Shown here one piece after another: positions 1,629 through 32,000 of a DNA stretch of 44,471 nt. This DNA is from an uncultured archaeon (GTDB lineage Archaea > Aenigmatarchaeota > Aenigmatarchaeia > QMZP01). Position 1 is the first letter of the stretch. Each line of letters opens with the position of its first letter. Location: positions 1 to 44,471 of the forward strand of contig CAZCSS010000002.1 of assembly GCA_964501515.1 (NCBI GenBank). The letters are read 5' to 3'. A model generated the notes under the pieces. The model had not been told where the DNA came from and searched no databases. It worked only from the letters and a program-made list of their open reading frames with translations. The position numbers were made by a program, and so were the translations under genes.

Positions 1629-1630
1629 AT

Positions 1631-12148: not shown

Positions 12149-12167
12149 GATTGTTTTGTGGGGGTTT

Positions 12168-12179
12168 GATATAAATATC
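12168..12179 (-). promoter_or_regulatory. TATA-like box for the NUDIX gene
   Basis: The minus strand reads GATATTTATATC followed by 19 nt and then the ATG at 12148. This spacing fits a leaderless archaeal transcript. Confidence 0.4.
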
Positions 12180-12260
12180 AGCAAAGGAATAATATTATAT
12201 TAGTTCTGATGCGCTGCGGCTTCCGCGGCCTGTCCCCTTTCAGATGTGGCCTCTGTGTGG

Positions 12261-12417: not shown

Positions 12418-15400
12418 CTAACTGAGCTTTCTGTTTATCTCAGCCAGCCTGGTTTCGGTTCTTTTCTTCAGGCTGTTATATGCCTCCTGTGATATTATGC
12501 CCTGCTTGCGCTGCTGCTCCAGAAGGTTGAGCATTCTCTCAAGGCGGTTCTTCTCCACCTTCAGTTTCTCGCTGTCATCCTCCCTCTTCACAGAGGAGGT
12601 AAGCTTGCCTATTTCCGTTGTCCTTCCCCTTATAAGCGTCTTCAAGCTCGTGCTTATTCTTCTTATGTAAATCACAAGCATTGCAACAACTATGCCGAAC
12701 GCTATTATCAGTGCGAGCCACCATGGAAACACAAAGAGATTCGGCGCTGTTGAGAGAAGATATTCTGCCTTGTCAAGCAGGTTCCATCCGGCATATATGG
12801 CATCAAGCGCATCCTCGTACCTTTCATCAGAGAGGTATCTCTCGGCCTTTGATATCTGCTTCTCTATCTCATCAACAAGCAGGAGGACATCTGTAAGGTC
12901 TTTGATGTTTCTGGCATTGTCCACCTTTATCATAAACTCGTCCAGGGCATCCTTGAGCCTTTCAAGCTCATAATGCACCAGCTCCTTCATGGACGTGAAT
13001 ATCAGCAGGTCAAATGTTTTCTCGTCCCTTGAATCACCGGAAACAGCTGCTATTATCACCTTCCTTTTCCCTGCCTTTGTTCCTCCTGGAACAAGTATTC
13101 TGAACGTGAAGACTGTTGTTTCATTTGGGTTCAGCAATGCCACTGACTTGGGGCTGATGTCATACCACTCCGGCGGGATTCCAGACACTTCAAGCGTGAC
13201 ATTGGTCAGGTTTGTCCCTCCGGGATTTCTGACATGTATGTTGGGGAACCTGGCAAGACCAACCATAACCGCTACCTCGGTGGGGTATTTGGAGATTTCT
13301 ATTTTGGGCGTGGGCGGCGCCCCCCCACCTCCGGCAGGTGCAGCCGGGCCAGTCGGTCCGGGTCCGGGAGGTCCGGGCGGGGCCCCGCCTGGAAGGACCT
13401 TGAATGTCACACTTGTTTCTGACCCTGCATCGGTGAGGGTGTCATTTATGGTTGCATGGAGCGTGTATATTCCAGGCGGCTGGTCAGAGAAGATAAACAC
13501 CCTCGTCCCTGGAACAGTTATGTTCTGGCCTGCGGGGGTATAGGTGGGCTGGGCATCAGGAAGGGAATACCAGGTCTGGCCAGCACCCTCTACCCAGTAT
13601 CTGAGGTCAACGTCTCTCCCGTATTCTCCCTTGTTGTCAATAATAAGATTGAAGTTAAACCACTGACCTTGCTGAACCTCGGCCGTGATGAGTTCTATCC
13701 TGAGGTCATAAGGCCCCCAGGCAGCTATGCTGAACGCCCTGCTGGCCACGGTATGCAGGCCGCCTTTTGTAGCCTTGAGAACAGCCCAGTAGTCTCCTGA
13801 CTGGATTGTGGTTCCCATCACATAGCTGACCAGATAGCGTCCTGTGGAGTTCTTGTTCATTGCAGGGTTTCCGTTCGTGAGATTGGTCTCAAAAAGTACA
13901 TTGCCCAGTATGGGGTTTCCGTAGTAAACAGTCATGTTCATTGTGTCAGGATCAATGGGCAGACCGGCAGCGTCCTTTACCAGAAGGTCAAACGTCATTG
14001 TGCTGTTCGGGAACCAGACGTCCCTGGTCACAATCTCGGCGTCCATGCCAATGCTGTCATACACATCAAAATAGTTTGTTGTGGTATCAGTCACATTCCA
14101 GGGAACAATATTATCATAAAAAAGCGAGTGCGTGGTTATGGCGTATCTGCCTTCAGGATAATCTGATTTTATGGTGAAAAGGTCGGGGTACGGCGAACTT
14201 GCAGGTGTTCCATTCTGGTTGGTTGTATAGGTATTGTTTACCAGAACATACCCCGCCGGGTCTGTTATGGTTACTGTTGCGTTCACGTTGCTGAGATTCT
14301 CATTGTTCATGTCCATTACATGGTATCTGAGCGTGACCGAATCGCCTGTTTTGTATACAGGCTTCCCTGTGGTAGACGTCACTGCGAGATCAGCATATAT
14401 CCGTAAGGTCTCATTTTTTGTGGTGTTGACACTGCTGTTGTCCTGGATGAAGATGCTGACTGTGTAGTTGCCTCTTAGGATGGTATTGCCCCATACATCT
14501 CCGAGGTAGTCAGGGTATGCCGTCGTCCAGTAGGATGTCCCTGAAACCTGGCCGCCGTTGTATTGAAGTGTGTGATTGCTCACATTTCCATCAGGCCGAT
14601 AGACATATGCCATAATGGTGCAGTTCACGGGCGGCGGACCCTCATCATCACATCTGATGGGATTCCCGGAGAGGCTGGTTACTGTGACATCTATATCCAC
14701 ATTGCTTATCTGCTGTGTGATGTTCGGGCTGAGAACTATGATAATATTGGCCTCTATTTGGGGGTTGAGGGCCACGAAAAGGAACCTCTCTCCAGGAACA
14801 GAGTAGTTATAAGTGGCATTGATGCTGTAGTTCGAGTATTGCCACTGCTTGGGTTCGCCCTGACCCGTTATGTCAAAATACACTGCAAATATGTGATAAT
14901 CTTGCTTTGCAACACTGAAATTGGTGTCTGTTATGTAGGTGTAGTTTTCATACAGCGGGGTTATGTTAAAATTGAGCAGCATATTGCCCGTGTTGTTCAC
15001 GCTCACATTGCACACTATTCCTGTATCCTCATTCTGGAAGCGCTCGCAATATTCAGGAATCATCACCCAGCTCCCGTTCTCCGGGACTGTTATGCTTAGG
15101 TTTATTATGTGATAACCATTGTTGCCAGTGGTTACATTGATGCTGCCGTTGTAGACCCCCGGATCATGGCCTGCAGAAGCGGTTAGATTGGCCGACACAA
15201 TTATAACATCACCCGGGCTCATGTTGAAGGGAAAGTCAGGGGTGAAGTTGAAGGTAAAACCAGCCATGCCCGTTATGGTGTAACTCACGTTGATTATCTT
15301 GGAGTTGCCGGTGGAGTTCAGGGTTATGTTTCCGAGAAATGTTGTGGTGTTATGCTCCATGGTGTCTGTGAACTGATTCTCCGGAACCAGAAGTATCACG

Positions 15401-18297
15401 TTTGATGTGACCGTGACGTTGGTCCTGCTCTCATTTGTCCTTGCCGCTATCCCTATATCAGTCCAGTGGGCTGTGGAATTTATTGTATAATTTCCCGGGG
15501 CAGTGTTATTGACTATTGTTATAGTGAAATTATATGAGCACGAACTGCCTGCAGTGAGGTTGCCGCAATAGTAATAATCCTGCGGGGTGGTAAAGTTTCC
15601 GGGAAGACTCAGGGTGATGTTGGTGAAGAAGGATGTGATATTTCCTGTGTTGGTTACATTGACCTTGAGGTCAAATGACTGGCTCTGATAATAGGTCACC
15701 TGGCCGGCAGTGAATCCAGACGGCTCATTGGTGATTGTGAGGTTTGTTCCTGTTACGATTACCTCGAATGTTATGTTTTCGTGGTTGGTGTTGTTGGTTG
15801 TGACGTTAAGGATTCCCTGGTATATCCCCGGGTTCTGGTCAGGGCTTATGTTCACATTTGCCTGAACAACCTGGGAACTCCCGGCAGACAGGCTTGTTAT
15901 GTTCCCGGGGACGAATGTCACTGTTATGTTGGGATCGAGCCCTGTGATGTGGTAGGTTACATTAAGGAGCTCGTCATTTCCATAGGAGAGGACAGTGAAG
16001 TTCACAGTGCTCTGATTTCCCGGCCCTTCAATAGCAGTCAGGGACTCTTCTATTACATCGAGTATGGGGTTGCTTTCCACTGTTATGTTGAACACAGTGT
16101 AGTTGAAACCAGTGGAGTTATCAAAGTTGGTCCAGTTCACGGTGAGATTGACAAAAAGGGTCTGCGGGGCGGTTGCGTTAAGGACTGTGATGTTAAAGCC
16201 CAGTGTGGCATTGGCTTCAGGTGGTATAGTTCCCAGACTCTCATGTGGCAGGGTCTGGTTGGACACAATCTCAGAGGGGAGAACAAGGGAGAAGTTGGCA
16301 GTGTACATGGAGGAGAATCCTGTGTTGTTTATGAACACCTCGAGATAGAAGGTTTCATTATCAAACCATGTCACATTGTAGGCTGTATAGTTTTCGGGTG
16401 TGGGGGTGATAGAGATTGTTGTATTTGCGGCCTCTACATAGTAAGGAGCGGTATCTGTCCCGAAGTTATTATCCCTCGTGGCATTGCAGACGAGATAGTA
16501 TGTTCCCCTGTTCAGGGGAGCTGAAAACTGGACAAGATAAGTGCCGTCTCCATTATCGGTTATGTTGTTTTCTTCTACAGGAACCCCGTCGGCCTCGCAT
16601 GTTACATTGCAGGATGGATATTCCGTATCCTGCCTGTAGTTCGTGATGTTTAGCGTGGCATTTACTATCCTTTCGCCGAGACCGTTTTGGTTCTCAAAGG
16701 TTATATTGGCAAAGAGCTCATCGGTAACAGTGAATGAGCCATTGCTTTCGTTGAGAAAGTATCCGCTGGGATCATAAACCCTGATCGTGAAGTTCCACTC
16801 CCCGAGGACAGAATTGTTTGTGAGGTTGTAATAGGAGGACCAGACGCTGTCAGCAGAAAGAGTGTCACCATGAGAGCCGTCGTCATAGAGAATGATTGTC
16901 ATGTCATCCGAGGGGTTGGTGGTCCCGTTATCAAGTGTGGCATTCACATTGTTTGTCAGGTTCCAGCTGTCAGAGGTTATGTTGCCCATTATTATGGAGG
17001 ATTCGTTGAGGTTGTAATAGAGATGGTCTGTAAGAGGTCTTATATCAACAATCCATCTCTCCGCGCTTCCCAGCGTCACATTTACAGGGTTCATTATCCT
17101 CTTCTGGAAGTCATTCATGTCAAGGATACCTGTGCTGGCGCCACTGACGTTTGTCACGATTATTGTCTCGTGGTAGAGTGATTCATTGGGCTGAATCTCA
17201 ATCTCGTCCATCCAGATTCCTACAGGACCAGTACTGGTTGCACTGGTGTTTGCATAAAAGTTTGCATAGGATTCATTGAGGTTCAGGTAGGCTGCCCACG
17301 GCCTGCCGCCTGATTCCTGCGCAAGAACCCATGAACCCGGGTCAGTAGTGTTCTTGTCGGTTCGGTAGCCGCTCCCGAGGTTGAAGGCCTCGTAAGCATC
17401 AAGCGCCAGCGCGCTGCCATTGGCAGTTCTGTTCACTGGGTTTGTATCCTTGTTCGTGACATTCTGGCTGACTTTTAGCCATGCAGTGCTTTTGTAGAAG
17501 TAGTATCTCTTGTCAAGATAAAGCTGACCTGTCTTGTTGCCGGATTCATTCCAGTATATCTCATCTCCCTCCTGCTTCACTGTTATCCTCACAGGGCCAT
17601 CTGTTATCGTGGCATTGCTTGCGAGGTCAAATCCAAACCTGTCGCTCTCGTTCCCAAACTCTGTCCATTCCCTGGTTCTGTCATTGTCACCGCAGACTAC
17701 CTCGAAGACATAGGCATTTCCGGGTATGTCAAAGATGTCGTATATGCCGGATGTGTGTTCTCCTCTCACTGTATCGATGTTTACAACGAGTCTTGTGGTG
17801 TTTACCTCAATTTCCTCACCGTCCCAAGTCGCATTCATCCCGGTGTCGTAATTCTGCCTGTTGTGGGACTGCTTTTCTTTGATGTCAAAATACAAGGTGA
17901 AATACCTGAGCGTGTTCTGCGGATTGGTCCCGTTAAGAAGGAATACGAGGTCGCCTACAGCGTTGAAGGATGCATTAAAGTCGTCGGCAGGATCGAACTG
18001 GCTCGGGAAGTTTGAATCAATAATCCATCCGGAGGAATTGGTCTCAAAGAGGATGGTGGAATTCTCATCGAACGTGCCTGAAACATTCAGCTGCTGCAAT
18101 ATCTGGGTGAAATTGATGCGGTACTCCACAGGCCAGTCTGTTCTTGTATAGCCGGTTGTGTTGACCGTAAGGGATATCCTGTAATGCCATGTGTTGTTCC
18201 ACCAGGGCACGTCGGGTTGTGAATGCGCGGGCTGGTAGCTGAGAAGCAGGGCGATTGCAAACGTTATAAATACAACTACCAAAATCCTCTTCTTCAT
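12418..18297 (-). CDS. Large secreted, sequon-rich cell-surface protein, 1,959 aa, with C-terminal TM anchor and cytoplasmic coiled-coil/SHOCT-like tail
   Basis: ATG start with a classical signal peptide (MKKRILVVVFITFAIALLLSYQPAHS). There is a long series of beta-strand-like, N-x-S/T-dense modules. They include paired modules ending in PG-h-Y-x-G motifs (DQNPGIYQGILNVTT, GHDPGVYNGSINVTT), typical of CARDB/NEW3/S-layer-type beta sandwiches. Then come a Pro/Gly linker, one more beta-sandwich, a helical segment, a TM helix and an 81-aa charged tail. Confidence 0.9.
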   Translation of the reverse strand: MKKRILVVVFITFAIALLLSYQPAHSQPDVPWWNNTWHYRISLTVNTTGYTRTDWPVEYRINFTQILQQLNVSGTFDENSTILFETNSSGWIIDSNFPSQFDPADDFNASFNAVGDLVFLLNGTNPQNTLRYFTLYFDIKEKQSHNRQNYDTGMNATWDGEEIEVNTTRLVVNIDTVRGEHTSGIYDIFDIPGNAYVFEVVCGDNDRTREWTEFGNESDRFGFDLASNATITDGPVRITVKQEGDEIYWNESGNKTGQLYLDKRYYFYKSTAWLKVSQNVTNKDTNPVNRTANGSALALDAYEAFNLGSGYRTDKNTTDPGSWVLAQESGGRPWAAYLNLNESYANFYANTSATSTGPVGIWMDEIEIQPNESLYHETIIVTNVSGASTGILDMNDFQKRIMNPVNVTLGSAERWIVDIRPLTDHLYYNLNESSIIMGNITSDSWNLTNNVNATLDNGTTNPSDDMTIILYDDGSHGDTLSADSVWSSYYNLTNNSVLGEWNFTIRVYDPSGYFLNESNGSFTVTDELFANITFENQNGLGERIVNATLNITNYRQDTEYPSCNVTCEADGVPVEENNITDNGDGTYLVQFSAPLNRGTYYLVCNATRDNNFGTDTAPYYVEAANTTISITPTPENYTAYNVTWFDNETFYLEVFINNTGFSSMYTANFSLVLPSEIVSNQTLPHESLGTIPPEANATLGFNITVLNATAPQTLFVNLTVNWTNFDNSTGFNYTVFNITVESNPILDVIEESLTAIEGPGNQSTVNFTVLSYGNDELLNVTYHITGLDPNITVTFVPGNITSLSAGSSQVVQANVNISPDQNPGIYQGILNVTTNNTNHENITFEVIVTGTNLTITNEPSGFTAGQVTYYQSQSFDLKVNVTNTGNITSFFTNITLSLPGNFTTPQDYYYCGNLTAGSSCSYNFTITIVNNTAPGNYTINSTAHWTDIGIAARTNESRTNVTVTSNVILLVPENQFTDTMEHNTTTFLGNITLNSTGNSKIINVSYTITGMAGFTFNFTPDFPFNMSPGDVIIVSANLTASAGHDPGVYNGSINVTTGNNGYHIINLSITVPENGSWVMIPEYCERFQNEDTGIVCNVSVNNTGNMLLNFNITPLYENYTYITDTNFSVAKQDYHIFAVYFDITGQGEPKQWQYSNYSINATYNYSVPGERFLFVALNPQIEANIIIVLSPNITQQISNVDIDVTVTSLSGNPIRCDDEGPPPVNCTIMAYVYRPDGNVSNHTLQYNGGQVSGTSYWTTAYPDYLGDVWGNTILRGNYTVSIFIQDNSSVNTTKNETLRIYADLAVTSTTGKPVYKTGDSVTLRYHVMDMNNENLSNVNATVTITDPAGYVLVNNTYTTNQNGTPASSPYPDLFTIKSDYPEGRYAITTHSLFYDNIVPWNVTDTTTNYFDVYDSIGMDAEIVTRDVWFPNSTMTFDLLVKDAAGLPIDPDTMNMTVYYGNPILGNVLFETNLTNGNPAMNKNSTGRYLVSYVMGTTIQSGDYWAVLKATKGGLHTVASRAFSIAAWGPYDLRIELITAEVQQGQWFNFNLIIDNKGEYGRDVDLRYWVEGAGQTWYSLPDAQPTYTPAGQNITVPGTRVFIFSDQPPGIYTLHATINDTLTDAGSETSVTFKVLPGGAPPGPPGPGPTGPAAPAGGGGAPPTPKIEISKYPTEVAVMVGLARFPNIHVRNPGGTNLTNVTLEVSGIPPEWYDISPKSVALLNPNETTVFTFRILVPGGTKAGKRKVIIAAVSGDSRDEKTFDLLIFTSMKELVHYELERLKDALDEFMIKVDNARNIKDLTDVLLLVDEIEKQISKAERYLSDERYEDALDAIYAGWNLLDKAEYLLSTAPNLFVFPWWLALIIAFGIVVAMLVIYIRRISTSLKTLIRGRTTEIGKLTSSVKREDDSEKLKVEKNRLERMLNLLEQQRKQGIISQEAYNSLKKRTETRLAEINRKLS
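12664..12738 (-). other. C-terminal transmembrane helix of the 1,959-aa protein
   Basis: Reverse-complement translation gives LFVFPWWLALIIAFGIVVAMLVIYI, followed by RRISTSLKTLIRGR. The positive-inside rule puts the tail in the cytoplasm. Confidence 0.8.
13306..13392 (-). other. Pro/Gly-rich linker (PGGAPPGPPGPGPTGPAAPAGGGGAPPTP) in the 1,959-aa protein
   Basis: Read directly from the sequence as a local G+C-rich patch. An analogous linker sits in the same relative position in the giant protein (21949..22044). Confidence 0.8.
18220..18297 (-). other. Signal peptide of the 1,959-aa protein
   Basis: It has a basic n-region (MKKR), a hydrophobic h-region (ILVVVFITFAIALLL) and a small-residue c-region (PAHS, then QPD). 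Confidence 0.7.
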
Positions 18298-18336: not shown

Positions 18337-20079
18337 TCAGGCACCAAACCCGAGCATTTTCCTTGTCTTTTCGTATGCCTCCCGGCTGATCAGGCCCTTT
18401 CTAAACGAGTTCTCAAGAGCCTGCAGCATTCCATGGTTCTGGGGGTGCCCTGCCGGCCGGGTCTTTGTGGCAACTGGTTCGGAACTCGCGGGCTTCTTCT
18501 CTGCTATAGCATTTTCTTTCGGCATATCCTTCTTCGCATCATCCGGTTTGCCTTTTTCCTCTGATGCTTCTGGTACGGGTTTTGGCCCGGGTTGCATTTT
18601 CCCTGGTTCGGGCTTTCCTGACACGGCCTGTCCGGGTTTTTCAGAAGGCTTTGTCTTGTCATTCTTCATGGCTTCGGGTTCTTCTGGCTTTTTTGTTTTT
18701 TCGTCCTCTGGCCCGGTCTCTGAAGCAGATGGGGATGCTTTGCCGGCAGCAGCTGTTTCCTCTGCCATTATCTGCTTCTCTATATCTTCAAGCCTCTTCG
18801 TGTTTATTTTCTTGGTCTTCTCATAATCTGCCTTGCTTATCTTCTTGGACGCAAGCTGTTCATCAAGCATTGCAAGCAGGCCCTCAATCTCTTCTCTCTG
18901 GGTTTCCAGTTGCCTGAGTTTTGGAGATTTTGAAGAAACAGCGTTACCTGCCCCCCCGGAGGATGCGACCTCAGCAATCCTCTGTTCAACTGTGTTTCTG
19001 AGCATTTCAAGGTCCTCCTTTGAGGCAAATCCCTCAATCTTTGTATTTATCTCCTCAAGAGACTTCATGGTCTCCTGGGAAAGTTCATCCAGGGTCTGCT
19101 GCTTTACCTTGTAAAACATGAATTCTTCAAGTCTCTTGTTAAGCTCTATGAAGATTGAATTCACCCTGTCAGCGAGTTTGGTTATCTTGGCCTCCCTGTC
19201 ATCGATCTCCTTTATCTTGGCCGCCAGACCCTGACTGAACCTGGCCACGTTCTCCAGGCTCCCGAGATCCTTGAATGCGTCCTCTATTGTAGTTACCTTC
19301 TTTATCAGCATGGAAAGCATGTCATCGATCTTGTCCAATCTGGCCTCATGGGTCTTGATTTCGGTTTCCTTTCTCTGCAGGTCTCTGACAAACTGGTCAG
19401 TTTTGAGGTATTTCATGGTGGAGATTGCTTCCTCCATCTTTATCTCCTGCTCGCTCATCCTGCTTTCGAGACTGTTCACGCCCGAACGCAGCTCCCCTAT
19501 CTCCTCCATAATTCTTCTTATGTTTTCCTCTGTGTCTGTTTTTTCATCCTTGATCGCATCAACAAATGTCCTGAGCTTTTCAAACTGTATAGCCAGCTTC
19601 TCGAGTTTTTCTCCAATGCCAGAGGTTTCGGGCCTCAGCTCCTTAACAAATTTCTGGAGGACATCCTGCAGGTCTTTTACAGAAAGGGTTTCAGAAGGCT
19701 TTCCTACAGGGAGGGTTTCAGAAGGCTTCTCCTCGAATTTCTCTTTTTTTTCCTTTCCTATTTCAATCCCTGCAATACTTTCCTCCTCAACAGGTTGGGA
19801 GACCGGAATTTCCATTTCAGCAGCAATCATTTCCCCCACAGTCTTGGGTTTCTTCTCCTCTTTCTTGGGCCTGCCGCCTTTCCTGGATGTCTCCCCTGCC
19901 TTGCTGCTCATCTCATTTATTTTTTTTTCAATCTCCTGGAGGGATTTCTCGTTTTTTTCCTTAACTTCCTTGTAATGCTCCTCTGTTATGCTGGCATCGT
20001 TATATGCTTCTTCAAGCGTCTTCAGGAGCGTTTTGATGTCCTCTCTCTTCTTCTCCAGTTCCTCAAGCGTTTCAGCCAT
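18337..20079 (-). CDS. Cytoplasmic coiled-coil protein, 580 aa, with three SHOCT-like motifs and two E/K/P-rich disordered spacers
   Basis: The ATG is 9 nt after the TAA of the giant gene. There is no signal peptide or TM. The central region (about aa 140-370) is heptad-like helix. SHOCT-like motifs are LLKTLEEAYNDASITEEHYKEVKEKNEKSL (N-terminal), LLAMLDEQLASKKISKADYEKTKKINTKRL (middle) and MLQALENSFRKGLISREAYEKTRKMLG (C-terminal). Confidence 0.87.
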   Translation of the reverse strand: MAETLEELEKKREDIKTLLKTLEEAYNDASITEEHYKEVKEKNEKSLQEIEKKINEMSSKAGETSRKGGRPKKEEKKPKTVGEMIAAEMEIPVSQPVEEESIAGIEIGKEKKEKFEEKPSETLPVGKPSETLSVKDLQDVLQKFVKELRPETSGIGEKLEKLAIQFEKLRTFVDAIKDEKTDTEENIRRIMEEIGELRSGVNSLESRMSEQEIKMEEAISTMKYLKTDQFVRDLQRKETEIKTHEARLDKIDDMLSMLIKKVTTIEDAFKDLGSLENVARFSQGLAAKIKEIDDREAKITKLADRVNSIFIELNKRLEEFMFYKVKQQTLDELSQETMKSLEEINTKIEGFASKEDLEMLRNTVEQRIAEVASSGGAGNAVSSKSPKLRQLETQREEIEGLLAMLDEQLASKKISKADYEKTKKINTKRLEDIEKQIMAEETAAAGKASPSASETGPEDEKTKKPEEPEAMKNDKTKPSEKPGQAVSGKPEPGKMQPGPKPVPEASEEKGKPDDAKKDMPKENAIAEKKPASSEPVATKTRPAGHPQNHGMLQALENSFRKGLISREAYEKTRKMLGFGA

Positions 20080-20088
20080 GCTTTATTT

Positions 20089-23000
20089 TTAGCCTCCTGC
20101 CTTTTCAAGCCTCTTCTTCACAGAGTCTATGTAAGTCTTGGCCATGGTAAACATGGTCTGGCGGGTCTTGTCTTTCGCAAGCTTGAGCTCGAACTCGATG
20201 TCTGTGGTGTCAATCTTCCTGTCTTTGAGGGCTTTAGTCCTTCTCTCGAGCTCTGCTATTTCCTTATCGTATTTTATGTACTCTGCTATGTCCTTGTCAG
20301 AAAGCCTTCCTGTATCGTGCAGGAGCGGCCTGAACTCGATGAAGTAAGGCTTTCCGTCATTGTATTCCGCATTCTGGACCTGGCCTGTTCCTGTCTTTAG
20401 TTTAGTTATTGTTGCCGCGTAATTAAATCCGTACTTCTCCTTGACCCTCCTGATGTCGCCTGTATACTTGGTTCTGAGCTGTATCTCTGTCGAGATGTTG
20501 GCCCTGATGGCTCCCTTGAAGTCCATCAGAACCTGGGATATGAGCCAGAGCCCTATTCCCCATTTTCGGAACTCCCTGCAGCCCCTTTCAAGGGCGACAT
20601 AGCCGCCCTTTCCGCCGTACTTGGGCAGCAGTCTGTGGACCTCGTCATAGAATATCATGCACTTCAGGCTTGTTGCCTCTGGCCAGGGTATCTTGAATAT
20701 ATCTGAAATGGTTTTCCTGACAAAGCCGTCCAGAACCGCGGGCTCAAACTTGTTTATCAGGAACACTGTTATCTCTCCCGGATTCATGTAGTTCCGGATG
20801 TCTATGTCCATGTTGGGGTCTTCAACCTGAACGATGCGCCCCTTGAATCTTCTGGCATCTGTTGGTTTCAGGCCGAACTTGGGATAGAGCTTGAGCATCT
20901 TGGGGTCCCTGCACGGCCTCAGGAAGCCGGTCCACTGGCATGTCGGGTCGAACACTATTACAGGTATCTTTCTCTTGAGCAGCTCCTCGGCACACACCAT
21001 GGCCGAGACCGACTTGCCCGAACCTGTGGAGCCGGCTGATATGCCGTGCATTCTGAGCTGCTGCATATCCCAGTAAGCAACCACATCGGTCTCGGCTATC
21101 TTGCCCACAGGGAATGTGTTTGGTCCTGGCTGCGGGAGTTTCTTGAAGTCCATCGGGAAGATGTATCTGGCCTTCTTGGCGGTTTTCTCTTTGTAATACA
21201 TGTATGCGCGCCTTCCTATATAGAAGCTCGGGAGTATGGCGAAGAGAATGAGATATGTTCCCCAGAACCAGAAAATGTTCCTCAGGGCCACAAGAACAGG
21301 GGGGAGTTCTATCACATCAAAGGTATCTACTGCGATGGCTGCCTTCCTGCCGTTCCAGTAGGTCACATTGGCCTCGAGGGTGTAGCGATCATAAGGTATG
21401 TCTTCTGGAAGGGATATCTGATGCTTCATGGTCTTGACCTGGTCCACAGCGAGTGTTTCCTTTGTCATGTACATCAGTTTTTCGTCCGAAAGCCGCTTGA
21501 CTTTGAATTCTGCCACAATGTCATTGATTGATGCTGTTTCTCCCATGTTTATCAGTGTAAGTTCAAATGTGAGGTTGCCGCCGGGCTCAATGGCTTTTGT
21601 GAGGACTCTGACCTTGACGTCAAGAAGCGGCTCGGGTGTTCTCTCAATCCTGACGGTGACAGGCGTCCTGTGCGTGATGTTCCTGCTGACTATCTCTGTT
21701 ATTATGTCTCCTGTGTATATGCCTGGTGGGGTTGTGGGAAGGGCGTAGAGTTTAACCTTGAGGATGCCCGTATCCTTTCCTGATATGTTCATCTCGGGCT
21801 TTTCTATCTGCACAAGTTCCCATACGTTTCCTTCAACCCGCGTCTTTGCCTGTATCATTGTATCCCTGTTGTTCAGAATCTCTACTGAGTGGATCTCGAA
21901 CTCGCCCTGCTCAAGCGTGACGAATATCAGGGTGGATTTTATCTCAACCGGAACCGAAGGCATGCCGGGCGGGGCCACCATGGCTGCTCCGCCTCCTCCC
22001 CCGCCTGCTGACGGCGGTGGCGGCGGCTGGGGTGTAGGAAGCGGACAGTCAGAGGGGCAGGAAGTGGTAGACTCCCCGTAAGAGGCCTCGCAGGTCCCGT
22101 CGCCGCAGATGAACTGGGCCAGAACATAGACATCTCCCAGCGTAGTGTCAGATGCCGTTACTGTTTCATTTATAACATCAATTGTGCTGGCAAGCCTCGT
22201 CCACGTCCCGTTGCATCTTGTATACTGCTTCCAGCTGTCGCATTTGTACAGAGCAAGGTTGTCTATTGTGAACATGTCAGCGGACTGGGAGTAGTCCATT
22301 GTGATATTGAAACTGCTCGAGTTCATGGCGGTCCTGATGAGGACCCCATTCCTTATGGGGCCGTTTCCTATCTTCATCCTGTTAATGCTACCAAACGTGT
22401 AGGGGTTGTAAACGTCAGCCAGGAGCGGGGTGTTGTATGTTGTGAACGTGTCATTCCATATCCTGGTCACGATGTCATAGTTCCTTCCGTCTATTGTTGC
22501 GTTATAATATCCCGTGTCCGGGTCGCTTGTTACATTTATTATGAGTGTGCTTGATCCGTTTCCGTAAAAGTCAAAGGTCACATTCAGGGGAGCAACATAA
22601 GGCTTTTCAATATCCTCTGCGATTCCCTGGAAGTTCACCGAGGGATATATTTCAAAACTGGTGTTGGTGGTGTTGCAGTTACCTGACTTGTCGCATGCTG
22701 TTACATTCACTGCATATACGCCAAGCTGGGATGTGTCATTCAGGTAGAGTTTGTAGGTATGGACAATGCCTGAACTTGAAACATAGATAAAATCGTACGG
22801 GTATGTGGTTGTGTTCGGGAATGTTATCTCTCCTGCTACACTCTGAACGCCCCCGCCTTCTGTGATGTTGGCTGTTATCACAGCTGTGGTATTGGCAGGT
22901 ATCAGGGGTGGGACATAAAGATCAATGTCTGGTGGATTGGGGTCAAAGTATACAATGGAATCGTGCTCAAAGTCAGACAAAACCAGAGATATGTTGGTGA

Positions 23001-26000
23001 TGGAAGTGTTGGTGTAGTTTGCTGTCACATTAAGGCCGAATGCTCCTTCCTGGCTTACATTGGGAGCCTGGAAGGAAAGGACCCAGTAGCCGTTAGAGGG
23101 GGAATACGTGCTGCTGTTGAGGGTTATTGGTATGCTTGTGGAACTGTTTGACATGATAACAGCAAATTCTACACCACCGGTTACTGGTTCTGTTGTGTAA
23201 TTCACATACGCTATGACATCTATCTGGTCGCTTGCATTAACGTTGATCTTGGGATTGCTGCTCGTCGGGCTGGTGACATTGACAAAATAGGGATGAACTG
23301 TCATGTTGACAAGGCTTATTCTCTCTGGTGGGTTGCCTGATGTGTTCTGAGTTTTTATGTATCCAGAATAGGTGTATTTGCTGTAAACCACGGGCGCACT
23401 GTAATTGACATAGAAATCATAATAATCATTCATCTCCACATCTACTGGTGTGTTATCATTGAACCAGGCATAGCCAAAACCGAATATATTGCCCCAGTAC
23501 GTAACACCCAGCCTGACGGGAGCGTTGCCTGTGTTATGAATCTCTATTGTTCCCAATTCCCCTGTTGTCCCCTGTATAACCTCTTTTGTGAGATTCTCAG
23601 GCAGCTGGGTCCATGAAATGTTCTGCGGTATTGTTAGGAAGAGTTCAATCCATGCAGAGACGTTCTCGGAACTGTTTGCCCGTATGGTAGTGTTATACGT
23701 GCCTGCGGGATATGTACCAGGGACAGATATTGTTATATTCACCGAGGCGTTCTGACCTGATTCCAGAACCGGCACCCAGTCAGGGGTAAGATGCACAGAA
23801 AAGTTCTCACAGAAATATGGTGTGCTGTTACCAGAATCATCGCACCACAGGGTTATGTTTGTTACATTAACATTGCCTGTTGACAGCAGGATGGTGGTGG
23901 CATTGGCCGTGGCATTGGCAGCAATAATGGTTGTTATGTTTTCATCAAGGAACTCCATTGCGGGATTGGAAAAGACATTCACCAGTATGCCGGTCAGATT
24001 GTAAGCAGTTGTATTGTCCATATTGGTCCAGTTGGCTGTTACATTAACAGTGTAATTGCCCGGGGCTGTTCCGTTTGCCACTGTTATCCTGCTCTGGTTC
24101 TGGCCTGATGTGTATTTAAGCAGGTCGCCGAAAAAGAAATAATCCGGCGAGGCGCTCCAGTTCAGGGGAAGTGTGATGTTGGAGGATATGTTGAACGCCC
24201 TTGCCCAGGCCGGAGTAATGTTTATAGCGATGTCAAAGCTCTCGCCCCAGTATATGGTTATGTTGGTTATGTTCACCTGCGTCACGTTCAGGATTATATC
24301 TATTGGTGTGCTGCTCGCGGCTGTTATTTCATAATACTGGGTACAGGAAAGCAGGCCCATGGTGTCATTTGCGCATATCCTGAGCATATGGGTTCCGTTT
24401 ATCTCTGAACTGTAGCTGGAAAGATATGTGGGCGCATATGTGTTGTTCATGTCAAAGGAAAGGTGGTTCTGGTCCTGGACAGAATAGCTCAGGTAGGTCA
24501 GGTAAGAGGCATTTGCGGGCGAACCGCTCTGATTCTGTATTGTAAGATTGATTGACTGATTGCCCGGGAGGATGAAACTTGTACCTGCCTGAACAGCGTC
24601 AATGGTGAAGTTCTGTCCGTCTGAAAGGGACTGGTTTTCAGCAAGTAGAAGACCATTTATTGTGAGGTTAAAGTACATCGCTGTCCCATTGATGTTCTGG
24701 ACTGTGATGTTGAAGAAGAGCATAGTGGTTGTATAGTTGGTGCCAATCTGCTCAGTGTAATTGAACCCCTGGTCAGGGTCAGTGGCGTTGTGAATGAGCT
24801 TTGACTCGTTGATGTAAAACGTATCATTGGGCCGAACAGCTTCCACCCATGCATGGGACACTACAAAATTGTCTGTTATGTTGGCGCTTATGTTGACCTG
24901 CTCATAATACATCTCAAAAATCATGGGATTGAAAACCACGTCAGTTATGTTTGGTGGTATGTCAGTGACATTAAGCCAGAAGTCCACTACTCTCTCCTGC
25001 GGCGTGGCACTGCTGTTCCTGGTAAGCAGCTGGACGTAATACATTCCTTCGGGCTGGCTTCCGGGAACAAGATAAGTGACATTCACTGTTTTGGAGAGTT
25101 GTTTGCCAAGTTCAAAATACTCATCGCTCAGGAAGACCAGCCCTGAACCATTCTGGGTTTTGTATATCCTGAATGCTATCTTGATGTTCCCTGTGTTGTT
25201 TACCTGTATTTTGCCCACTGTTCCGTTTGTGTTTATGGGCGCGAGGAATGTGCCGAATGTCGCGGGAGACTGGGTCCAGGTGCTGTTCACCGGGACAGAC
25301 ATATTTATTACAGCCTCGTCATATTCAGCATTGTCAGAAGTTGCCCTCATAAGAGTCCAGTATGTTCCCGGGTCCTGGCCGAGAGAGATGTTTGCGGTCA
25401 CATCAACCGTGAAGTTTGAACCGGCGTGCAGGTATCCCCAGTTTGTTGGAATGAGTATTATATTGCATGTCGGGCATTCAACACCGAAATTCCCCCCGAC
25501 AAGGGAGAGTTGTACGTTCTCCACAGCGTCATTCCCTGTGGCCCCCACGGTGAAGCTGCCCACATAGGTCTCCTCTCCGTTCGGGGTGACATTGTATATC
25601 ATTTCCTCTGTTATATTGAGTATTGGGTTCTCAGCCACAGGTAGATTGGTGACATTCTGGGTGGTGTTTACGGTTCTATCAGGGTTGGTCCATGTGGCAT
25701 TTACATAGAGTTTAATCAGTATTGGAGGTGTTCCGGCCGGAACCTCCACATGCAGGTCCCAGATACAGCTTGTGTTTGCTGACATGTTCCCGCACTCCTC
25801 GAAGGTGTCATTGATAATCAGGGTGTTGTTTGGGTCGTCAAAAGAGGTCAGATTCACGTAATACATATGCGCTGGGCCGGTGCTGGTGAAGTTTATCTCC
25901 ATATCGAATTCGAAGTTATCTGTCTGTGTTATTCCGTAAACAAGAATCTCTTCTGTCTGGTTTATCCAGCCGTAGGACTTGCCCCATACAGTGAAGTTGC

Positions 26001-29000
26001 CCGCAAACGTGGAGTTCATGTTGGATTCAGGCGGGCTGTCCCATGCATATATTGTGACATTATAGAGTCCTCCTATGGGCGGGAGATACTGGACCCTGTA
26101 TGTGGTGTCGGTGAAATTGGCCATGGTCAGGTTCACGACCGACTGGTTGGGCATGGTTATGGATGCTGTTACAGTGTCCACCGCAGTGTCGTCGGTTACA
26201 TCAGATGTTATATTGGTAGTGTTCAGCCAGGCCTCTATGCTGGTGTTGGGGACTATGGAAACGTTTGAGAATTCGGGCGGGTACACGTCACGGACAAATA
26301 TGAGCGCTGTGGCATTGTTTATATTGGCGCTGAGCTCCATGCTCTCGTTGTCTGTTATGTTGCAGATGAATGTGACATTCCCTTTCTGCGAGGGGGTGAA
26401 CTCCTGTGTCACATAACCTGTCTGGTTGGTGGGAAAGGTTCCCACATAGGTCCATTCCGTGTCATTGTACCAGACCTCCACTGGATAGTTCTCTATCGGA
26501 GTAAATGACTCGCCATCAAGCACGCGGCAGGTATAGTTGAAGGATAGCGGATATTCCATTATTGAGAGGTTCGGAGGAGATATCCAGTAGACATCAGCCA
26601 GTCCGCCCAGTTTCAGGGTGACGTAGTCGATTCCGTTGTCATAAAACTCCCTTGTGGCTTCGGCCTTGAATGTCCTGTTCCCTGTGCTCTGGTAGAGGAG
26701 ATATATTTGCGTGTCGTTCCCGCTGGCCAGCCAGTCAGTCTCATTGTACCAGTTCACTGTTGTGGTGGTGTTTATTCCCATCTCGTCATAGACCCATGCT
26801 GAGAAATTCTGGATGCTGTTCTTGCTCACAAAGGTGTTGTTCTCAGGTTTCACTATCTCCGTTGTCAGGACGCCTTTCACGGTAATGTTGGTCTTCACTG
26901 TTTCGGAATCCTCCAGGCCCGGCTTGGTGGCGTTTATGTATATCGTGTAGTTGTTCGGGACAGCGTCATCAACCGGGTTGTAGGGGGTGTCTATCGTGCA
27001 CCATCCTGTCCCGTTTGTGGTGCAGTTGCCTATCAGCCCTGTGGAATTGAAGAAGGACACATTTGCTCCTGAGGCATTCCCCACATTGGCATCGCGGACA
27101 TGAACTGTGATATTGGTCTCATACGGGGTGTAACTGTCATTCCTGTGTATGCTCTGGTTGCCAACCAGGATATCATCTATTATCAGGGGTCTGCTGACTA
27201 ATATCAGGCTGTATATTGCTGTAACAGAATCATTGTAGTAAAGCGTGGAGTTGTCTGTTATGTTGCATTTTATTTCATACCAGCCCGGGGTTTCCTGACC
27301 TGTTGCCCAGAGCCATGTGACATAGCCTGTCTGGTTGGTCTCGGTTGAGAGATTGAGCGTGTTGTTGTTGTACACATTAACCGTGTAATTCGCTATTGGC
27401 TGGTTGAGATTAAGGTCGCTGACATGGCAGGTTACGCTCACATTGGTGCCTGATATTACGTTGGTGTAGTTCTCCGGATAAATCAGGCCAAGCCCGCTCC
27501 AGCCATATATGTATATGCCTGTGGTGTTGTATCCGAAGTCATGATATGACAGCGTGGAGTTTATCTTTATGGTTTCAGGTCCGAGGGGATAATTATAGGA
27601 TATATTCCATGTGGAATTGTAGAAGCTTGCACTGGTTCCGTTTGTGGTGCTGATTACATCCCATGTCTGATTGAACCAGGTAACATTGGATGTGTTTATG
27701 AAGTTTGTGCAGTCATCGAGCACTGATATGTTCAGGTTATATGTCATGTTTCTGTTGAGAACCTCACCACCATAGGGGTGATATGGCTCAGTATAAAGCT
27801 GACCGTACACATCAAGGCTGGCCGGGCTTGTATTTATCATCTGATAGCAGGAGTCTGTGGAGCCGCCTATCCACTTCTGGACACCTGTCAGGGAGGAGCA
27901 GCTTGCATTGTAATACACCCTGCAGTACCCGCTGCTGGAATCACAGTCAAGGGAAACAGTGTAGTTGTTGTGGTCCTCTGTCACCCATACAGTCCCGTTC
28001 ACGCCATCAGGATAGGTATTCAGAAAGTCTGTATCCTGTATCCTGAACGTCAGGTTCGCATAATCATCTCCCAGCCTCCTGACCTCAGTGTCGCTTGTTT
28101 GCAGGGACACAGTCACATTGTCAGGCTGTATGTAAAGGATTCTCACGCCCGCTGTGTAGTTCAGGTAGACGTTATAAGCCGAGTAATCACCCCCTCCAGA
28201 ACCATTACTGACCGAGAGTATTACGGTCTGGTTCTTGGGGATGGTGTCGTCATCACTCGGCATATTGAAAGAGGCGCCTGCCTGAACAGCGTCAATGGTG
28301 AAGTTCTGGCCGTCTGAAAGGGAATGGTTTTCAGCTACAAGATAGCCATTCACTGATATGTTGAAGTGCATGGCAGAGCCCTTTTTGTTTTGCACGGTTA
28401 TGTTGAAGTAATCCATTATCCCGGACACTGATATGGTTTCTGTATGGACAAAACCATTGTCAAGCACAGCATATTCCAGATATGCTCTGTAGTTTGCGCC
28501 GAGCGGGGAACCTGAGTCCGTTCCTATCGAAAGGTTTATTGTCTGGTTTCCTGGCAGGGCAAAGGCCGCGCCTGCCTGAACAGCGTCAATGGTGAAGTTC
28601 TGGCCGTCTGAAAGGGATTGGTTTTCAGCAAGGAGAAGACTGTTCACTGTGAGGTTGAGGTACATGTCACCCCCGTTCAGATTCTCTATTGTGACATTGA
28701 AGAACTCCAGATAGCCGGATTCATTTATGTCCTCTGTGTAATTGAATCCTGTGTCCGGTGTGGCGGACGAATCGTGAATGAGTTCTGAGATGTTGAGAAT
28801 CGTGTAGTTACCCCCTCCGGAAGAATGGATTATTTTGTTGTTCACTACTGTTGTGTTTACAAATGGTTCTTCCTGCTGACTGGCTGTGGGGTCATAGTTA
28901 CTGTCATCCCAGTAGTTGAGATCGTCAGTGCTTCTGAGCTTGAAGTATCTCTTGCCTATGTCCGGGCAGGAGAATCTCTGCCAGAAAACCGGATTGTATA

Positions 29001-32000
29001 TGGTCTTTCCTGAATCATATGTATAGTTTATCAGGGTCCAGTTCTCCCTGTTCTCACTCATCCAGAGTGTTATGTTGTTGCTGTCGCCGTCGGGATCTAT
29101 CACCCTTGCGGTGAACTTATAGTATTCGCCCCAGCCCGCTGCCATGTCCCAGTAGGCAAACGGCAGGGACGGCTGCACCTGCTCTATCTTGAACTTGTCA
29201 ATGTAGGGCTCATAACCAACATGGAACGCATCAATCTTCATGGTGGTGTTTTCCCCGTAATACTGCTTCGCTGACTTCATTGTGGCATTGTACCACCCGG
29301 TGTAGTCTGCCCTCCATGTGCAGTTGTAATACCCCCCTCCCAGCTCGGTCTGGTTGGTGCATGTATATTGATTCCTCCCGCTTATTACCTTCCATGTTAT
29401 GGTGGCATTCTCCACGGGCCTGCAGTCGTCCTCCAGATAGCCATGCAGGGTTATATACTGGTTCAGCAGGTAACCTGTGCTGTTCGGAAGGAGTATAACA
29501 GGATTGAGATTGGACTTGAGAAGGACAAAATAGTCGCTTGAGTTCTGGTCCTTCCAGCACGAGTCTCCACGGGTTCCTCCCTTCCAGCGGAGTGTCCCCA
29601 CGGTATAATTGCAGTTTTGCCTGGGGGCGTCTGCTATGAAGTTGTATGTTATATGCCCTGTCCCGTTAGTAAAGGCGTCTGTTCCCTCGTCCCATGAATC
29701 CGGGTCAGAGGCGTTTGTGGTGGACCAGAAATGGGCATTCCTTCCGCCTGCAAGGGTGTCATTGCTGTCGTTATCAATAAGACGGAGTACAAGGGGGATA
29801 GAACCTGTTCCGTTCCTCCACACCTCGCTCATGTTGCCGAAAGAGTATTCCACCCTGATGTCGTCTTTCTCAAGCGTGAAATTGTGCGGATTTGTTTCAT
29901 CGATGTTGCTCCTTTTGTCTATGGCCTCAAAGTAGTATGACCAGTTGCCCAGTTCGCAGAACAGCTGGTTTCTCCACTCCAGGGCAATCTGCGTGTTGTT
30001 GGGCCCTGCCACCTCGGTTGTGTTCTGCAGGCTCCAGCTGGGCGCCTCGGGCTCCATGTCCTTCACATAAAGGTTAATTGTAACGTTGTCAAGGTCCTCG
30101 TCAGTGATATTCACGTAAAAAATCTGGGTCTCGTTCCATCCGACCGGGTCTTTCTGGGCGTATTCCCCGGAAAGCACGGGATTTGTGTATACGAAGAAAT
30201 GATAGTATGTGGCGTTTGTGGCATTGAAGTAGTACGTTCTTGATGTATTGACCTCGGTGTGATACCATCTTGCCAGCATGCCTGTAGTGTTCCTTGTGCA
30301 TTCGTACAGCCCTGCACCAAGGGGATCAACATAGCATTCATACTCTGTCTCGTTATTCTCATTAATAAGGTATGCGGTGGCAAGGTCGGCGTCTATTCCC
30401 ACGCCGCAGTCTGATTTCAGATTGAACTGTATTGTTGCGTTCTCCTCTCCCCTGGAATAGTTGTGGCCGATCTCAGGGGAGGTTATGAGAATCTCAAGGT
30501 TTCCGTATATGTTTAATTCGAGCTGCTCTGTCAGGTTGGCATTCTGATAGCACTGATCACTTATTCCGGCCTTCCATCTCTGTGGGCCTGTCCTGTAATA
30601 GGGATTTACATCGCATGAGGGATCAAAATAGTAGTTGGCATACCCCGAGCTGTTGGTCTGGGTGATGTTGCCGGCCTGCCAGGAATCCGGGTCACTGGAG
30701 TTCCATGTAACCCAGAATGTTATGTTATGGCCTGCTGGTACGGGTGCCCCAAGGTCATCATCCGTGGCGTTCACTATGAGAAGGGTTGTGTTGTATCCTG
30801 TTCTGGTCACGTTGCTCTCGTTCCCGAAGATATAGTATATTGATGCGTTCTGCGGCTCAATGGTATAGCCGGATTGCGCGGTGGTGTTGAAGTCATTCCC
30901 CAGGGTTCCGTCATCCAGCCAGAACTTATATTGATTGTCGCTTCCTATATCAGTGCAGTCAAATGTGGCCAGAAGAGAGCAGTTGCCCTGACCACCGTAG
31001 ACAATGGTTTCATTCTTGTATACCCAGGTGGACCCCCCGTCGGTTGATGTGTAGAGGATGCAGGTTACGTTGTCCTGCTGCTGGTCCCGGACCGATGTAT
31101 TGAAAGTGAATGTCATGGCCCACCCTTCTGCCGGCGGGTCAACACTGAAATTCCCAACTTCAGGGGGGGTGTTGTTCAGGAAGAACCTGTCCTCCCATAA
31201 GGTGGAGTTGGAGGAGTGATAAATCCTGCTCGTGTTTATCATTATATCCCACCACCCGCCTTCATGGAGGGATGTATCCAGGGTGTAATTATACCATCCG
31301 TTCCCCAGATCAAAGGGTGTGTATGATTCGGGTGAGCCCGTGGGGGATATGTAGGTTATGGTGGATGTGGTCTGGTTTACCATTGTCCCGCAGTCATCCG
31401 TCACATTGAATGTGGTGTTGACAGGATTCCCTACCGCGGTTTCATTCCCCTGTTCAGGAAGCTCGAGATAAACCCTGAGGGAGCCGTTTATGGTAAGGTT
31501 TATGGGGGTGCTGTTTGCATTTGCATAATAGCATTCATCGCCTGTGACACCTGCCTTCCACTCCTGGATGCCCGGCTTGTACTCGGGCGTGCAGTTTGGG
31601 TCAAAGTGCACAATCAGGTCACCGCTTGGATTAGTGGAGTTGAAGTGGCCGCTGTCCCAGCTTCCTGTCCCGCTTCCATTGACGGTTATCCATACTGTTC
31701 CGTTCACCCCGGAACCTACGGTGGTGTAACCATAATCCAGGTCAACAAAGTATGCGGTTATCTGCAGAGAATCCCCGCCCTCTCTGATTACAACCCTGTC
31801 AGGGGCGCAGGACCCTGATCCCGGATTGCAGTATGCCGCTGTTCTGTCCTTGAGCAGGTCAAAATTGTTGACAGTGGTTTCGTTGTAATCCCCCCACTTG
31901 TCAGTGACATCGATCATAAAGTAGTTGGTTCCTATATCAGGGCATGAGAAGTTGTGGGAAAAGGTTTCAAGAATCTCGTTGTCGCCATTGTATGTGGTGA

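Follow-up and report, generated by a model that had tools for sequence, protein, structure and literature searches.

A giant protein with a cytoplasmic ATPase

The window analysed here is a stretch of 44,471 nucleotides from an uncultured archaeon (contig CAZCSS010000002.1). Its largest feature is a single enormous frame on the minus strand (8,126 codons plus a stop), continuous over 24.4 kb, whose product joins a very long stalk, predicted to lie outside the cell, through one transmembrane (TM) helix to a C-terminal ATPase. Genes for a coiled-coil protein, a second surface protein and a MinD/ParA-type ATPase lie beside it (Table 1). We consider it highly likely that the giant protein belongs to the SPEARE family and that it carries a HerA-clade, probably active ATPase in the cytoplasm. 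New here are the HerA placement, the recurrence of the giant fusion in about 50 independent assemblies of DPANN archaea and the conserved flanking genes.

The ATPase domain is most similar to HerA

The region behind the TM helix looks like a catalytically competent member of the HerA clade in the FtsK-HerA superfamily, judging from its motifs and profile matches. A preliminary description of this DNA had reported one TM helix followed by 375 residues with Walker A, Walker B, REFRKWGIGLWLISQ and IQLRT, and then a coiled-coil tail of about 70 residues. The translation agrees with that order and with the positions: exactly 375 residues lie C-terminal to the helix, the span 20092-21276 running from the first TM residue to the last codon. 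The charged tail of ~68 residues is modelled as three helices (368-435 of the last 436 amino acids), ends in KRLEKAGG followed by the stop, and is conserved in the relatives and in SPEARE. The proposed HerA/DUF87 identity is borne out by Pfam, where DUF87 (PF01935, "Helicase HerA, central domain") matches at E 5.8e-8 (33.5 bits, cut-off 23.2) and HerA_C (PF05872) at E 2.6e-7 (30.1 bits, cut-off 22), well above what chance would give. FtsK_SpoIIIE stays under its cut-off (18.8 bits vs 24) and covers the P-loop region only, and none of the families CagE_TrbE_VirB, T4SS-DNA_transf and TraG reaches E 0.01.

Comparisons of the predicted fold and of the family profile both put HerA first. We modelled the last 436 residues with AlphaFold2 from an alignment of 92 relatives, with a mean predicted local distance difference test score (pLDDT) of 92 and a predicted template modelling score of 0.83. 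From the N- to the C-terminus the model runs through the end of a beta domain, a long helix with the TM segment in it, a pair of short strands, an alpha/beta core of the RecA type and three terminal helices. In a Foldseek search of this model against the PDB, ranks 1-17 are all HerA proteins (E 3e-12 to 8e-10), including Sulfolobus HerA (4d2i), Sir2-HerA and HerA-NurA; the C-terminal domain of DndH, TcpA (rank 27) and the genome-packaging ATPase of STIV2 come after them. The family sequence profile, searched against the PDB proteins, matches SsoHerA (4d2i) at 2e-11 and six other HerA entries at 1.5e-8 to 6e-7, followed by TcpA (0.024), FtsK (0.046), DotL (0.066) and TrwB (2), and no VirB4 structure is matched. 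HerA models in PADLOC also match the domain at 1e-9. A role in anti-phage defence was considered and rejected: the PADLOC matches are generic HerA matches only, an effector partner is missing, and DPANN lineages share the gene order.

All the catalytic residues of HerA have counterparts in the window ATPase. In Sulfolobus HerA, mutagenesis marks K154, D176, E356 and R381, which acts in trans, as critical (PMC4351679), and the HMMER alignment equates them with K129, D151, E253 and R278 of the last 436 residues. These four residues and the adjacent K279, which matches the R455/K456 finger pair of DUF4297-HerA, are invariant across the 92 relatives, so that the Lys, Asp, Glu and arginine finger equivalents on which the earlier assignment hinged are all in place. 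HerA, an archaeal and bacterial hexameric translocase of double-stranded DNA (dsDNA) represented by the S. solfataricus enzyme, HerA-NurA, Sir2-HerA and DUF4297-HerA, shares with the window domain the Lys of Walker A, the Asp that follows strand 2, the Glu of Walker B and the Arg-Lys finger acting in trans.

The window domain is unlike HerA in several other respects. It is anchored in the membrane and fused to an ectodomain, and the TM helix stands in place of the N-terminal HAS beta-barrel: the model has only two short strands between the TM helix and the RecA core, and the alignment to HerA starts where the last strands of the barrel lie. Walker A and Walker B are ~95 residues apart, and this stretch forms short helices and two strands, with no clear four-helix bundle in the model; in DUF4297-HerA the pore-lining DNA contacts sit in a helical insertion, which the window protein's family may lack. 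The model has no C-terminal domain, such as the gamma DNA-recognition domain of FtsK/SpoIIIE, beyond the helical tail, and the anchor is a single TM helix and not of the multi-pass FtsK type. No gene for NurA, Sir2 or another nuclease or effector partner occurs in the window or beside the ATPase gene in 88 loci.

The protein belongs to the SPEARE family

By sequence comparison the window protein is an exceptionally large, Aenigmatarchaeota-type member of the SPEARE family, whose architecture has been in the literature since 2019. The preliminary description knew of no family in which such a motor is joined to a giant stalk, and this has to be revised. We compared the window domain with the C-terminus of the SPEARE protein from Ca. 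Nanohaloarchaeum antarcticus as printed in SI Fig. S18 of PMC6642349, and BLASTP gives 40% identity over 359 amino acids (E 5e-96), the C-terminal 358 residues of that protein aligning end to end. Membership follows from this similarity together with the matching published descriptions.

SPEARE proteins were described from Nanohaloarchaeota as proteins of up to 8,553 amino acids, mostly extracytoplasmic, with a TM domain toward the C-terminus and a most conserved intracellular part that was annotated as a type III restriction enzyme (Hamm 2019, PMC6642349). The same study confirmed their production by mass spectrometry, reported short versions of 655 and 717 amino acids and similar sequences in Woesearchaeota, Aenigmarchaeota, Micrarchaeota and Altiarchaeales, and ascribed to SPEARE at least one laminin-G domain and serine protease or toxin-like regions; the serine protease assignment was later disputed (Reva 2023, PMC10266531). 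[quoted passage not shown] The published giants are NAR1_1133 (5,998 amino acids), the protein of Ca. Nanopetramus SG9 (8,553), SVXNc_0300 (9,409) and BNXNv_0298 (8,880) (PMC6642349, PMC10266531).

Common to the window protein and SPEARE are an Ig-like stalk of huge size outside the cell, a single TM helix close to the C-terminus, the cytoplasmic P-loop ATPase and the terminal coiled coil, and short versions of ~650-720 amino acids occur in both. They differ in that the lineage here is Aenigmatarchaeota-like and not halophilic, and in that the downstream gene encodes a coiled-coil protein and not a VirB4-type ATPase. Pfam detected no laminin-G, protease or toxin-like domain in the 8,126 residues that the window covers; at least ~3,300 residues of the N-terminal part lie beyond its edge. 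The ATPase is placed with HerA here, whereas the published placements are VirB4/TraG or a restriction enzyme. The literature thus holds three incompatible readings of the cytoplasmic domain, namely restriction enzyme, VirB4/TraG secretion ATPase and invasion tool. The SPEARE-type family is not mentioned in the Makarova/Koonin surveys or in the "huge proteins" and "giant genes" papers.

The complete protein extends beyond the window

The giant gene is cut by the right edge of the window. The entry in the list of open reading frames (ORFs) is 20089..44409 (8,106 amino acids; stop codon 20089-20091). The ATG at 44409 is not the true start: the frame upstream of it is open to base 44471, reading ...GGKPGGWYNIT-MNATEST, and the residues before it resemble the rest of the stalk in kind. 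A homologue search with the N-terminal part of the ORF gave fragments of at most 1,550 amino acids only. Three of them (P0121-P0123) align at the right window edge and carry more than 500 further homologous residues upstream. Five metagenome loci were found for the N-terminus, all open at both ends. One of the metagenome contigs, L090, matches the first 3,831 window residues colinearly (50% identity) and is open for 3,333 residues farther upstream. If the window protein and L090 are colinear throughout, the complete protein probably has at least ~11,460 residues. With more than 11,400 amino acids it would probably exceed every published SPEARE member, and this copy would be among the largest archaeal proteins and the largest of its family.

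The signal-less look of the ectodomain, noted in the preliminary description, is an artefact of the window edge, which cuts the ORF and leaves its N-terminus outside. Full-length relatives in the representative library have 2,900-7,852 amino acids, and several of them (P0287, P0216, P0191, P0234 and P0166) have signal-peptide-like N-termini, e.g. MSELEKIKILPLLLAVLLAVALVGADAS. Four other relatives (P0237, P0238, P0259 and P0282) have no classical signal peptide; their N-terminus is a conserved basic motif, MV(Y/H)(K/E)KYIKR(G/D)G..YGPY.YESYR..G.V..(K/R)Y(I/L/V)G, and in the printed N-terminus of P0237 a hydrophobic stretch comes directly after the motif. This suggests an alternative N-terminal anchor or export signal in these relatives.

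The giant fusion recurs across DPANN archaea

The giant fusion is conserved in dozens of non-halophilic DPANN lineages and is not an artefact. We scanned one genome per species and found at least 590 stretches encoding a relative. The best 80 of these at least 590 stretches, from which the lineages were read, are almost all from DPANN, mostly Aenigmatarchaeota, to which the genomes closest to the window protein also belong. The others in the best 80 are Micrarchaeota, Nanoarchaeia, Woesearchaeota, Parvarchaeota, a Nanohalarchaeota bin, Altiarchaeota and Ca. Haiyanarchaeum, and the only non-DPANN member is one bin labelled Heimdallarchaeota. In most loci with a full 10-kb upstream flank (about 50, from independent assemblies) the ATPase frame runs uninterrupted through all 3,333 upstream codons. 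An exhaustive search of representatives returned 356 clusters at 50% identity with E 1e-30 or better, many of them proteins of 3,000-7,852 amino acids with the domain at the C-terminus. The search for proteins of the same architecture, which had been suggested for this locus, is answered by these independent loci and by called proteins of up to 7,852 amino acids.

An error of assembly or gene calling that joined an adhesin gene to a separate ATPase gene could be suspected from the ~725-residue short forms (P0040, P0047 and P0057), in which a core of 620 residues has its own signal peptide, and from relatives split by frameshifts, N-gaps or a single in-frame stop, but the few split genes are broken giants, and with the frame continuous here and in the independent flanks, the same layout in the long called proteins and a nanohaloarchaeal protein seen by mass spectrometry (PMC6642349) we reject this explanation with near certainty.

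Some variants were observed among the relatives. In P0293, P0250, P0210 and P0197 the ATPase is followed by 190-450 further residues and does not form the extreme C-terminus, so the cytoplasmic end varies in architecture across the family. Two otherwise continuous giant ORFs have a single in-frame stop (L054 at ~8533-8535 and L071 at ~3020-3025), which could be a sequencing error, pseudogenisation or read-through.

Topology and the extracellular stalk

Several sequence features support a stalk outside the cell and an ATPase in the cytoplasm, as proposed earlier. A Kyte-Doolittle scan of all 8,126 residues finds IFWFWGTYLILFAILPSFYI as the only convincing TM helix, with one further hydrophobic stretch inside the ectodomain (residues 5751-5770). 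The ectodomain (7,731 amino acids) has 520 N-x-S/T sequons, or 6.7 per 100 residues, vs one in the cytoplasmic tail (375 amino acids), or 0.27 per 100, and Lys and Arg together make up 4.5% of the former vs 18.4% of the latter. The basic stretch next to the helix fits the positive-inside rule, and signal peptides in full-length and short relatives point the same way. In a second AlphaFold model, of the last 730 residues (pLDDT 83), the TM segment is part of one long helix running on into the cytoplasm. This model shows a disordered Cys-motif and Pro/Gly linker, two well-predicted beta-sandwich domains beside the membrane, the TM helix, the ATPase and the helical tail; the 620-residue core of the short forms corresponds to this region.

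The stalk consists largely of repeated beta-sandwich domains. Pfam detects Ig-like domains of the families Big_7, MG2 and NPCBM_assoc in the ectodomain, and the model shows beta-sandwich domains. A chunked self-BLAST finds internal matches for 94-100% of the residues in the part 1-5400, while the membrane-proximal ~2,300 stalk residues are mostly non-repetitive. There has been a recent duplication (36163-37962 vs 33106-34866, minus strand) of ~600 residues at an offset of 1,031 residues; its copies are 76-100% identical, and one stretch of 169 amino acids is 100% identical. The perfect 507-nucleotide repeat in this duplication, with copies 3.1 kb apart, is a possible source of misassembly in short-read data. 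Alignments show that the two membrane-proximal beta domains are common to the giant forms and to the ~725-residue short forms.

Giant fibrillar adhesins of bacteria, such as the RTX adhesins and Giant1-5 of Apilactobacillus, are like the window stalk in their multi-thousand-residue arrays of tandem beta-sandwich domains and in growth by internal duplication. Unlike the window protein, they are anchored by secretion-system plugs or cell-wall motifs and have no cytoplasmic motor domain.

Genes conserved beside the ATPase

The ATPase gene has a conserved set of neighbours, which we compared in 88 loci. A coiled-coil protein of 520-590 amino acids is encoded directly after it in 84 of the 88. The gene that follows encodes a second surface protein, of ~1,950 amino acids in the giant systems and ~340 in the short-form systems. 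A MinD/ParA-type ATPase lies within 10 kb in 33 loci, with 49-66% identity among the close relatives. We did not find this neighbourhood of coiled-coil protein, second surface protein and MinD described in the literature. Farther downstream in the window lie two very long coiled-coil proteins, whose membership of the system is uncertain; a comparable gene stands in the same place after the cluster in L006 and L011. The long proteins could form a cytoskeleton-like scaffold for the apparatus. Pfam finds no component of a type IV secretion system (T4SS) among the window proteins.

Table 1. Features of the giant gene and its neighbours, in window coordinates
Feature	Position	Strand	Details
Giant ORF	20089..44471	-	5' end incomplete, leaves the window at the right edge; frame open to 44471
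Stalk	21277..44471	-	Predicted extracellular; 7,731 residues in the window, heavily N-glycosylatable; Asn/Thr/Ser-rich, Lys/Arg-poor
Repetitive part of stalk (residues 1-5400)	28270..44469	-	Diverged copies of a multi-domain super-module (chunked self-BLAST)
Cys motif ICGDGTCE...CPSDCP, then Pro/Gly-rich linker	21955..22110	-	Predicted disordered (pLDDT <50); Cys motif kept in relatives
Two membrane-proximal all-beta (Ig/CARDB-like) domains	21313..21948	-	Strands 112-213 and 220-323 in the 730-residue model, pLDDT ~85-92
Single TM helix IFWFWGTYLILFAILPSFYI	21217..21276	-	Translation, Kyte-Doolittle scan, 730-residue model (helix 328-370)
Basic juxtamembrane segment GRRAYMYYKEKTAKKARY...	21118..21216	-	Lys/Arg-rich; in the place of HerA's HAS barrel, with only two short strands before the RecA core
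RecA-like ATPase core, HerA clade	20320..21117	-	Pfam, AlphaFold model, Foldseek, family profile
Walker A GSTGSGKS	21010-21033	-	Lys7819
VIVFDPT	20941-20961	-	Conserved Asp
Walker B MIFYDEVH	20635-20658	-	DE
REFRKWGIGLWLISQ	20533-20577	-	REFRKWG arginine finger and SQ sensor
EIQLRT	20470-20487	-	
C-terminal three-helix, coiled-coil-like tail	20092..20298	-	Helices 368-393, 399-413 and 417-435; model pLDDT >90
Partner 1, cytoplasmic coiled-coil protein (580 amino acids)	18337..20079	-	No TM helix, no P-loop; 28% identity to the L003 partner, E 3e-22
Partner 2, surface protein (1,959 amino acids)	12418..18297	-	Signal peptide, Ig-like/NPCBM_assoc/MG2, helical stalk, TM helix, short cytoplasmic coiled coil
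Nudix hydrolase	11669..12184	-	Pfam NUDIX E 5e-20; between the genes of partners 2 and 3
Partner 3, MinD/ParA-type ATPase	10862..11668	+	Pfam CbiA/ParA/AAA_31; 51% identity to the L003 homologue
Protein of 215 amino acids	10134..10781	+	Adjoins the MinD-like gene in the closest relatives; 11 loci, 46-51% identity
Protein of 135 amino acids	9674..10081	-	One TM helix and a coiled coil; adjoins the long coiled-coil genes
Two very long cytoplasmic coiled-coil proteins (1,416 and 1,267 amino acids)	1631..9681	-	Downstream; ~39% charged, no TM helix, no P-loop

Possible functions of the apparatus

The ATPase would work as a ring under the membrane. Characterised HerA/FtsK relatives are all rings, and the window ATPase would most likely be a hexamer; the conservation of R278 and K279 implies a ring oligomer, as the arginine finger acts in trans in HerA. 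In HerA one face is capped by the HAS barrel; since the TM helix takes its place here, this ring would lie flat beneath the membrane, its axis at right angles to the membrane plane. The protein identity and the ring at the membrane, taken jointly, are very probable in our judgement. The ring may gather up to six stalks at one site, in line with the bundle idea of the preliminary description, and the fibres in such a bundle would be several hundred nm long. It probably works jointly with the coiled-coil protein, the second TM-anchored surface protein and the MinD-type ATPase, and with them it would constitute a host-contact apparatus.

As its activity we favour ATP-driven transport of a polymer through the ring where the cell touches a host. 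DPANN archaea need external nucleotides, and DNA would be the likelier substrate, because every characterised close structural relative handles dsDNA. Thermus TdtA, for example, binds the membrane as a HerA-like hexamer and pushes DNA to another cell (PMC5365140). TdtA, Streptomyces TraB, FtsK/SpoIIIE, TcpA, TrwB and VirD4 are all ring ATPases that an N-terminal anchor keeps at the membrane, toward which the pore axis points, and they are used for DNA transfer from cell to cell or across a septum. They differ from the window protein in having several TM helices or none and no large ectodomain; their sequence similarity to the window domain is weak (E 0.02 to 2), and no DNA-recognition domains occur here. 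DNA translocation specifically, which is proposed by analogy with these motors, is a tentative suggestion that we regard as possible and somewhat improbable. The broader proposal, that the SPEARE ATPase and its conserved neighbours are the core of an unrecognised DPANN-wide membrane machine in which a HerA ring at the base of a fibre bundle moves DNA or another polymer across the symbiont membrane, we hold to be unlikely as a whole.

Several points weigh against these proposals. The ring itself is deduced from homology only, and the FtsK-HerA relatives include ATPases with protein substrates, for example EssC and VirB4. The window has no NurA, nuclease or DNA-binding partner. The channel may differ from that of HerA, as the HAS barrel is missing and the DNA-contacting helical insertion is not evident in the model. 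With one TM helix per protomer there are at most six round the axis, a poor conduit for dsDNA, and an additional channel component may be present. The published interpretation favours effector secretion (PMC10266531). In the nanohaloarchaeal proteomics, moreover, the cytoplasmic-plus-TM part and the ectodomain were found in different size fractions (PMC6642349), so the two may be separated after synthesis.

A structural role without translocation could account for much of the neighbourhood. Here the ring and its tail would tie the fibres to a coiled-coil scaffold, the MinD-type ATPase would position the assembly, and ATP turnover would control assembly, clustering or outside-in signalling on host contact. 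The tight synteny with the coiled-coil protein, the second TM protein with its cytoplasmic coiled coil and the MinD-like ATPase fits this explanation, as do the conserved helical tail and the 1,267- and 1,416-residue coiled-coil proteins downstream, and archaeal surface machines are commonly regulated by MinD/FleN ATPases. However, the catalytic and arginine-finger residues are all invariant, as a motor at work would need and a scaffold would not, and no characterised HerA-clade protein is purely structural. On balance we find this explanation doubtful.

The nanohaloarchaeal proteins have been read as a type IV secretion-like "straw", in which the stalk binds the host and a VirB4/TraG-like ATPase injects effector proteins (Reva 2023, PMC10266531). 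That reading was built on homologues whose next gene encodes a VirB4-type ATPase; VirB4 and VirD4 are in the same superfamily, some relatives have weak precomputed Pfam matches to T4SS-DNA_transf, TrwB_AAD_bind and AAA_10, and TcpA, which is among the Foldseek matches, is a conjugation coupling protein. For the window protein, however, no T4SS family is reached at E 0.01, and in the family profile search HerA leads TcpA, DotL and TrwB by 9-11 orders of magnitude, with no match to a VirB4 structure. The downstream gene in the window and in the 84 loci encodes a coiled-coil protein without a P-loop and not a second ATPase, no other T4SS component was found in the window, and a chain of Ig-like domains makes a fibre and not a tube. 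Effector secretion of this kind is quite unlikely here.

It is very unlikely that the protein is a membrane-anchored FtsK analogue for chromosome segregation or division with an incidental ectodomain. HerA/FtsK motors do pump chromosomal DNA, and the neighbourhood encodes a MinD-type ATPase and long coiled-coil proteins, of which one has a weak EzrA-like Pfam match (E 3.7e-4) far below cut-off. But this would leave unexplained an ectodomain of more than 7,700 residues that evolves fast and duplicates internally, as well as the paired second giant surface protein; the FtsK_SpoIIIE score is below its cut-off, and the family is confined to DPANN in the best 80 genome stretches, bar the one Heimdallarchaeota-labelled bin. 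The original annotation (Hamm 2019), a type III restriction endonuclease by which imported DNA would be degraded, came from matches to the helicase part of such enzymes (PMC6642349), and we consider it highly improbable, since the whole 375-residue region is a RecA-like HerA core with a helical tail in which neither we nor Reva (PMC10266531) detected a nuclease domain.

For the nanohaloarchaeal systems in culture, the HerA placement, the wide conservation of the fusion and the conserved partner genes yield hypotheses that can be tested. The tiny DPANN symbionts depend on their hosts for lipids, nucleotides and further building blocks, which have to cross from one cell to the other. SPEARE-type genes are the most conspicuous genes of DPANN genomes; here one gene takes up 24 kb of the 44-kb window, in a genome of probably ~1 Mb. 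If the proposed DPANN membrane machine exists, it would be a route for the acquisition of nucleotides or genes that is unrelated to type IV pili, ComEC and the classical T4SS.

Other features of the locus

None of the related loci has a counterpart of the Nudix gene in this place; a single homologue was seen, in L084 with 27% identity, and it lies elsewhere in that locus. The 215-residue protein has no Pfam match.

The short-form operons (L003 1-4434; L088 218-9024) have four extra upstream genes. One encodes a separate surface protein, glycosylated and without a TM helix, that exceeds 2,000 amino acids; the other three encode small proteins, membrane-anchored or secreted, with about 180-198, 193-194 and 303-308 amino acids. 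None of these proteins has BLAST similarity to the giant stalk. Gene fission or fusion involving the upstream surface protein (2,165 amino acids) was considered and rejected, as it has no BLAST similarity to the window ectodomain.

A motif resembling SHOCT, G-(I/L/M)-I-S-x-E-x-Y-x-x-(L/T)-(K/R), with no Pfam match, was observed at the cytoplasmic C-termini of three proteins of the neighbourhood type. Its copies are in the coiled-coil partner (18337-20079; KGLISREAYEKTRKML), in the 1,959-residue surface protein (12418-12560; QGIISQEAYNSLKKR) and in the 344-residue short-form homologue of the latter (L003 8277-9311). It may be a shared oligomerisation or docking motif.

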